Virus record (IMG/VR): IMGVR_UViG_2671180609_000014
Strand: one strand, 5' to 3'
Origin: a virus
Lineage: Duplodnaviria; Heunggongvirae; Uroviricota; Caudoviricetes
Length of the DNA: 11,469 bases
Shown one piece after another: positions 8,705 through 9,439 of the stretch; the stretch's first letter is position 1, and each line of letters begins with the position of its first letter. The position numbers and the translations under genes are program-made. The notes below the pieces were generated by a model that did no database searches, had not been told where the DNA came from, and saw only the letters and a program-made list of their open reading frames with translations.

Positions 8705-9439
8705 ATGGAGACTGTTTTTGACGCACTGAAAGCGATGGGAAAAGCCACGTCGGTATAGCTGGCTGCGCGACTTGATATCAGTCGTGAAGAAGTACTGAAC
8801 GAGCTGTGGGAACTGAAAAAGGCTGGCTTCGTTGATAAAAGCGTATACACCTGGCGTGTGGCTGATAACAACGTTCAGCAGGAACAGCCAGCGCCAGAAG
8901 AAACCACCACGGCAACAGAAGCGAAAATCTCAGAGTGCGATTTAACCGCGACGATTGAACAACGCGGACCACAAACGGCGGATGAACTGGCTACGCTGTT
9001 CGGTACAACATCCCGCAAAGTTGCTTCAACGCTGGCAATGGCAATCAGCAAAGGTCGTCTGATTCGCGTAAACCAGAACGGTAAAATTCGTTACTGCATA
9101 CCAGGTGATAATTTACCAGCAGAGCCGAAAGTTGAATCGGTAGCGGAAACCGATGGTAAAGCCTTTCCTCAGCCAGCCGGTGTTGCGTTACCGGTACAGA
9201 AAGATGCAACACAGGAAGATATTAAAACAGAAACTGTGGCGGACATTGTGCAGTCGCTGCCATCGTTTACTGCAACGCGAGAAGATGATTTGATTTTGCC
9301 ATCGCTGCATATGGCAAATCGCGAACTGCGTAGGGCGAAGAATCATGTCCAGAAGTGGGAGCGAGTCTGCGCCGCGCTGCGGGAGCTGAACAAGCACCGG
9401 GATATGGTTGCCGGGATTTGTCGGAAGTCCGGGCAATGA
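8705..9439 (+). pseudogene. Winged-helix DNA-binding protein gene interrupted by an in-frame amber codon at 8756-8758
   Basis: GGAGG 8 nt upstream of ATG 8705. The frame reads [58 protein letters not shown]... and stays open to TGA at 9437-9439. The winged-helix motif runs straight across the stop codon. The track starts the downstream part at GTG 8858. Confidence 0.55.

Follow-up and report, generated by a model that had tools for sequence, protein, structure and literature searches.

A recent nonsense mutation very probably inactivates a DUF1627/YdaW-family gene in a lambdoid prophage of the Escherichia coli O157:H7 lineage

The window analysed here, an 11,469-nucleotide stretch of Caudoviricetes DNA (IMG/VR record IMGVR_UViG_2671180609_000014), carries on its + strand a DUF1627/YdaW-family prophage gene whose codon 18 is an amber codon, and this codon is very probably a recent, lineage-fixed nonsense mutation that has turned the gene into a pseudogene. 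A G→T transversion at position 8756 would have changed codon 18 from GAG to TAG in the O157:H7 lineage, so that ribosomes loading at the native ribosome-binding site would stop within the first winged helix, having made 17 residues. A recent origin is indicated by its being the one base that sets the 735-nt gene apart from the O55:H7 allele, and by its presence in the O157:H7 lineage. We infer that the protein is absent and that the allele spread by vertical inheritance, the loss of this accessory early gene of a repressed, resident prophage being neutral or nearly so.

Read directly from the window, the gene starts at ATG 8705–8707 behind a Shine-Dalgarno (SD) sequence, GGGAGGA at 8693–8699, whose GGAGG core (8694–8698) lies 6 nt from the ATG. 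The 17 nt upstream are predicted to pair with the 16S rRNA 3′ end at −10.3 kcal/mol, and pairing of −10 kcal/mol or stronger occurs at only 0.56% of window positions. The intact alleles WP_000450683.1 and WP_000450692.1 are annotated as starting at the same ATG. Codons 1–17 read M E T V F D A L K A M G K A T S V, codon 18 is TAG (8756–8758), and the frame then continues without a stop for 226 codons to TGA 9437–9439, where an ATGA overlap joins it to the ATG (9436–9438) of the next ORF. The full frame from ATG 8705 to TGA 9439 spans 735 nt and 244 sense positions. The first-pass annotation had described a strong ribosome-binding site, an amber at codon 18 and an open frame beyond it, and its coordinates agree with this direct reading; the protein motifs that it quoted are likewise present, as written, in the read-through translation.

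The read-through translation matches the Pfam family DUF1627 (PF07789) with 308.9 bits against a cut-off of 28.1, over profile positions 1–153 of 155 (residues 84–236; window 8954–9412). It also matches PHROG 630 (phrog_630, unknown function) over its whole length (E = 2.5e-121). When 901 bp around the gene were compared by megablast with 5426 complete E. coli genomes, 2811 records matched, and the gene was always annotated as "DUF1627 domain-containing protein". The continuity of the frame across the TAG is not a matter of chance, given the DUF1627 score and the fact that homologues align from Met1 straight past position 18. The PF07789 threshold is passed alike by the read-through translation and by translations starting at the downstream CTG and GTG codons discussed below. 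A functional member of the family would have an open frame from the conserved Met1; in the window allele that frame is interrupted by the TAG at codon 18.

Comparison with intact alleles indicates that the ancestral codon 18 is GAG, encoding glutamate. In an alignment of the best 120 homologues from a collection of 5.8 billion proteins, Glu occupies position 18 in all 117 sequences that cover it (TAG at codon 18: 0/117), 116 of the 120 begin at the same Met, and the first 60 positions are almost invariant. Two loci that are 99.8–99.9% identical to the window (2015C-3101 and PV0838) have GAG in place of TAG. The syntenic prophage of the O55:H7 strain TB182A is 99.1% identical to the window over 10.2 kb, and its intact 244-aa gene (WP_000450692.1) differs from the 735 nt of the window gene only by the G→T change at 8756. 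Likewise, the PPompW_EH2246 protein (BCI50178.1, LC567836.1) equals the read-through translation of the window except for Glu at position 18; these intact PPompW and O55:H7 alleles encode the full 244 aa, with the same gene order as the window and paa downstream. A recent nonsense mutation in a decaying prophage was one of the readings offered by the first-pass annotation, and GAG in the intact alleles, Glu in every covering homologue and the single-base difference from O55:H7 all bear it out. We also considered a native start near 8858 with the upstream 17 codons as an unrelated leader; this was rejected, as Met1 is common to nearly all aligned homologues.

The two alleles are distributed differently among the 5426 complete E. 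coli genomes. An exact 61-mer centred on the TAG was found in 293 records, and the corresponding GAG 61-mer in 311 records, which include O145, O111:H8, O121:H19, O103, O126, O55:H7 and others. Among about 19 sampled exact TAG rows out of the 293 records, all with a serotype given were O157:H7. Strain PV15-279, termed an atypical O157:H7 in the study that described PPompW prophages (bioRxiv 10.1101/2020.11.04.367953), also has the TAG. The simplest reading, based on the sampled rows rather than on a full phylogeny, would be one mutation after the split from O55:H7 followed by clonal inheritance. No convergent TAG or other recurrent lesion was seen at the codon-18 site. The substitution at 8756 offers a single-base marker separating the PPompW prophage of the sampled O157:H7 strains from that of O55:H7 TB182A and the non-O157 copies examined. 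The amber lesion is not described in an article on prophage defects in O157 Sakai (PMC2669165), where the words nonsense, amber, premature, frameshift and stop codon are all absent.

The surroundings of the gene point to the early region of a lambdoid prophage. Loci that match the window exactly or almost so carry, in this order, a cI-like helix-turn-helix gene, Cro, a YdaT-like gene, a DnaT-like (O-type) gene, P, DUF1627, a 54-aa ORF, a fimbrial pseudogene, paa and hokD, and in the lambdoid prophage loci examined the DUF1627-family gene always comes next after P or ydaV. Phage records named PPompW contain the same gene intact, followed by paa, and on this basis the window is assigned, from its sequence, to the early part of a lambdoid prophage of the PPompW type, which is inserted at ompW and carries paa. 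The study that described these prophages reports them as widely distributed among LEE-positive E. coli, with O157:H7 Sakai among the carriers (bioRxiv 10.1101/2020.11.04.367953). Only 33 bp (8672–8704) separate P from the DUF1627 gene, and from this gap the gene should be co-transcribed with the O-like and P genes in the early rightward operon.

The closest well-known relative is YdaW of the Rac prophage in E. coli K-12, which belongs to the same family and occupies the same place after a replication-gene pair (ydaU/ydaV in Rac, O-like/P in the window), although the neighbouring replication module is of the lambda-P type in the window and DnaC-like (ydaV) in Rac. Rac ydaW is also a pseudogene, but it has lost its C-terminus by deletion, whereas the window gene carries one amber at codon 18 and is otherwise untouched. 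DUF1627/YdaW is a known family, both alleles of the window gene are already in public databases, and the lesion is an ordinary nonsense mutation. In the literature found, DUF1627 is mentioned in passing and ydaW mainly in lists, with one experimental mention: an overexpression screen scored Rac ydaW as one of the prophage blockers of the retron-Sen2 toxin RcaT (bioRxiv 10.1101/2020.06.22.160242).

Structure prediction suggests that the intact 244-aa protein would consist of an N-terminal winged helix, a linker, a possible second winged-helix-like domain, a low-complexity linker and a long C-terminal helix. The full-length AlphaFold2 model is poor overall (mean pLDDT 54), being built on a shallow alignment in which all homologues are at least 83% identical. 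Its N-terminal unit (winged-helix-like domain, residues 1–53; window 8705–8863) is modelled at pLDDT 77–84 with helix 2–11, strand 13–15, helices 16–23 and 27–40 and strand 49–51. The Pfam profile HTH_20 matches residues 4–45 just under its cut-off (E = 6e-6; 26.6 bits against 27), with weaker matches to HTH_Crp_2, TrmB and MarR_2, and PF12840 is listed for many homologues in precomputed Pfam annotation. In Foldseek, the best local matches of this unit were winged helices of Lrp/AsnC, MntR, Csa3 and Z-alpha proteins (probability 0.8–0.89; rmsd 0.8–2.5 Å over 36–45 residues; E at least 0.39). The N-terminal 50 residues thus resemble winged-helix regulators (ArsR-like HTH_20, Lrp/AsnC, MarR and DtxR/MntR) in their helix-strand-helix-helix-strand order, with no match beyond a curated or significance threshold, whereas the DUF1627 region and the long C-terminal helix have no counterpart in these regulator families. 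A sequence search of solved structures returned only a chance-level match to MntR (E = 0.53), and Foldseek gave no significant match for the full-length model.

For the second unit (residues 79–130; window 8939–9094), matches to FeoC (E = 7e-4) and HVO_A0114 (E = 3e-3) both fall below the Pfam cut-off. Modelled alone, it reaches pLDDT 75 with a helix-helix-helix-strand-strand order, and Foldseek found nothing significant for it in the PDB (best E = 0.1; TM-score at most 0.5; rmsd mostly ∼10 Å). Of the two winged helices proposed by the first-pass annotation, the N-terminal one is therefore reasonably supported as a predicted fold by the near-cut-off HTH_20 match, the order of modelled elements and the local structural matches; the second is only suggested by sub-threshold Pfam matches and secondary-structure order, and fold comparison gave no significant match for it. 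The C-terminal helix (residues 193–241; window 9281–9427) is modelled at pLDDT 74–90 and may serve in dimerisation. Since only helix 1 and strand 1 of the N-terminal domain precede the amber, the 17-residue product would presumably be unable to fold as a DNA-binding domain.

The frame downstream of the TAG might nevertheless be used, and restart of translation at CTG 8759 or GTG 8858, giving a truncated DUF1627 protein as the functional product in O157:H7, has to be weighed against simple loss. In E. coli genetics, cases such as lacI and T4 rIIB show that translation can resume beyond an early nonsense codon. Here the frame is intact for 226 codons past the TAG, the DUF1627 match lies wholly 3′ of GTG 8858, and both shorter forms are called in public annotations: WP_077744273.1 is a 226-aa "DUF1627 domain-containing protein" with the CTG start of the NCBI annotation (8759–8761), at PV15-279 locus positions 9160–9840 (window 8759–9439), and the 193-aa form (ORF 8858–9439) is named "DNA-binding protein" in UniRef. 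The 244-aa (intact), 226-aa (CTG) and 193-aa (GTG) forms each occur on about 1000 or more contigs in public databases. GTG 8858–8860 (codon 52) is the first canonical in-frame start past the amber; between 8759 and 8857 there is no in-frame ATG, GTG or TTG, and the candidate starts there are CTG only. SD pairing, however, falls from −10.3 kcal/mol at the native start to −3.0 before CTG 8759 and −0.9 before GTG 8858; E. coli initiates very poorly at CTG, and the GTG lies 100 nt past the stop. A protein made by restart would be missing some or all of the conserved N-terminal domain, whose near invariance in the 120 homologues argues that it is not a dispensable leader. That the downstream frame is still intact follows from how young the mutation is, with no other difference from O55:H7. 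The 226-aa and 193-aa entries in RefSeq and UniProt are annotation work-arounds for a pseudogene rather than evidence of expression, and a functional restart product is very unlikely; reinitiation at GTG 8858, which the first-pass annotation had proposed, finds no SD signal there and homologues that start at Met1. A different allele with a 197-aa GTG-start form is also on record and hints at further N-terminal lesions elsewhere.

Expression of the full-length protein through amber suppression or programmed UAG read-through, also raised at first pass, is highly improbable. The strong ribosome-binding site and the frame intact on both sides of the TAG would suit it, and basal UAG read-through in E. 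coli is at the per-mille to per-cent level. Against it, TAG occurs in none of the 117 covering homologues, which gives no sign of a conserved recoding site, and it is one step from GAG. No tRNA gene was found within the window; farther on in the prophage, two tRNAs carry the anticodons CAT and TCT, and a suppressor tRNA with a CUA anticodon was found in neither the window nor the prophage. The genome-wide screen for suppressors covered one type, the supE44 form of glnV, and an exact query returned only 155 records, and each of the 60 listed appears to be a K-12-type laboratory strain or a derivative of one, with a genome of 4.5–4.8 Mb; at most a minority of the 293 TAG genomes could therefore carry supE44. 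The supE-type host suppressor suggested earlier thus found no backing. There is no hint of recoding, since the stop lacks conservation, neither supE44 nor a suppressor tRNA on the prophage turned up in this lineage, and a restart signal is missing. The allele resembles the classical ambers of lacI, T4 rIIB and lambda (Sam7, Oam, Pam) in being a single-base early amber in an otherwise intact frame, but those are laboratory alleles in suppressor hosts, whereas this one is natural, occurs in a pathogen lineage, and has neither supE44 nor a prophage-borne suppressor found with it nor a restart signal. A sequencing or assembly error, for which one might cite the 104-N gap at 1147–1250 in the window assembly, is negligible in probability and was discarded, as the TAG 61-mer is exact in 293 independently assembled genomes and the 901 bp around it are 100% identical in several.

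Selection for the knock-out in the O157:H7 ancestor, for instance because the protein disturbed the host or other prophages in the same cell, would be a version of the nonsense-mutation explanation rather than an exclusive alternative, and we regard it as unlikely. All sampled O157:H7 rows carry the TAG, including PV15-279, and the family has been inactivated independently in PV0838 and in K-12 Rac; the blocking of RcaT by Rac ydaW indicates that the family can interact with host defence (bioRxiv 10.1101/2020.06.22.160242). Yet a clonal single mutation needs no selection, no recurrent lesion was seen at the site, and the operon is expected to be repressed in the lysogen, leaving little opportunity for selection. 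Selected loss would imply that the intact protein had impeded host defence or the other prophages resident in the cell. It is quite unlikely that the amber allele is not dead in this wider sense, either through low-level restart at GTG 8858 yielding a DUF1627-only protein without the first winged helix and with altered (e.g. dominant-negative) activity or through selection for the loss; low-level restart or read-through and selected loss remain rather improbable even when taken together.

A recent, lineage-fixed nonsense mutation also accords with the state of the rest of the gene. In the genomes examined, the ORF shows no damage other than the amber, as is expected for so young a mutation, although a downstream ORF still in use would look the same. 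PV0838 carries an independent 1-bp deletion, equivalent to window position 9185, in an otherwise GAG allele, and Rac ydaW in K-12 BW2952 (locus 2501–2953) has lost its C-terminus. Together with the adjacent fimbrial pseudogene, these lesions fit an ongoing decay of this gene type. The amber may be of little importance beyond bookkeeping, affecting a predicted DNA-binding protein beside replication genes; the O55:H7 and O157:H7 alleles nonetheless form a natural pair that could serve as a ready-made isogenic contrast for the study of DUF1627/YdaW.

Downstream, the 54-aa ORF at 9436–9600 (+) encodes the hypothetical protein WP_001505071.1 and matches phrog_30109 (E = 6e-17; unknown function). 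It has a weak SD (−3.6 kcal/mol) and is probably translationally coupled to the DUF1627 gene, in which case the upstream amber may lower its expression. The fimbrial pseudogene follows at ∼9605–10138 (+) with a frameshift and an internal stop. The same lesions are annotated in O55:H7 TB182A, 2015C-3101 and PV0838, and its decay is therefore older than the amber. Beyond it lie paa (10299–11057, +), an AcfC-family adhesin gene (Pfam SBP_bac_11; E = 5.5e-34), and the sok antisense RNA (11246–11395, +; Rfam RF01794; 103.9 bits), whose hokD toxin gene runs past the window end.

Three further observations concern the locus and its relatives. In PV15-279, an IS1203 element (IS3 family) interrupts the DnaT-like gene at ∼7934 in window coordinates (O-like gene 7177–8217; PV15-279 locus 7068–8280); this gene is intact in the window and in the other strains examined, and the lesion, the second in this prophage module, is strain-specific. 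A query with the DUF1627 gene found 5–7 similar places per O157:H7 genome (e.g. NZ_CP038333.1 and NZ_CP062708.1), presumably paralogues in other lambdoid prophages; the best place listed per record in this search is the TAG locus itself. Finally, window positions 1147–1250 consist of 104 N where TB182A has ∼409 bp containing the 5′ end of xis and the 3′ end of the exonuclease gene. An apparent deletion there was dismissed, as the interval is a run of N (an assembly gap or a mask), and none of the complete genomes gave a match that spans it. Accordingly, what cuts the 768-aa "exonuclease" ORF (1131–3437, −) is this gap and not a real deletion.
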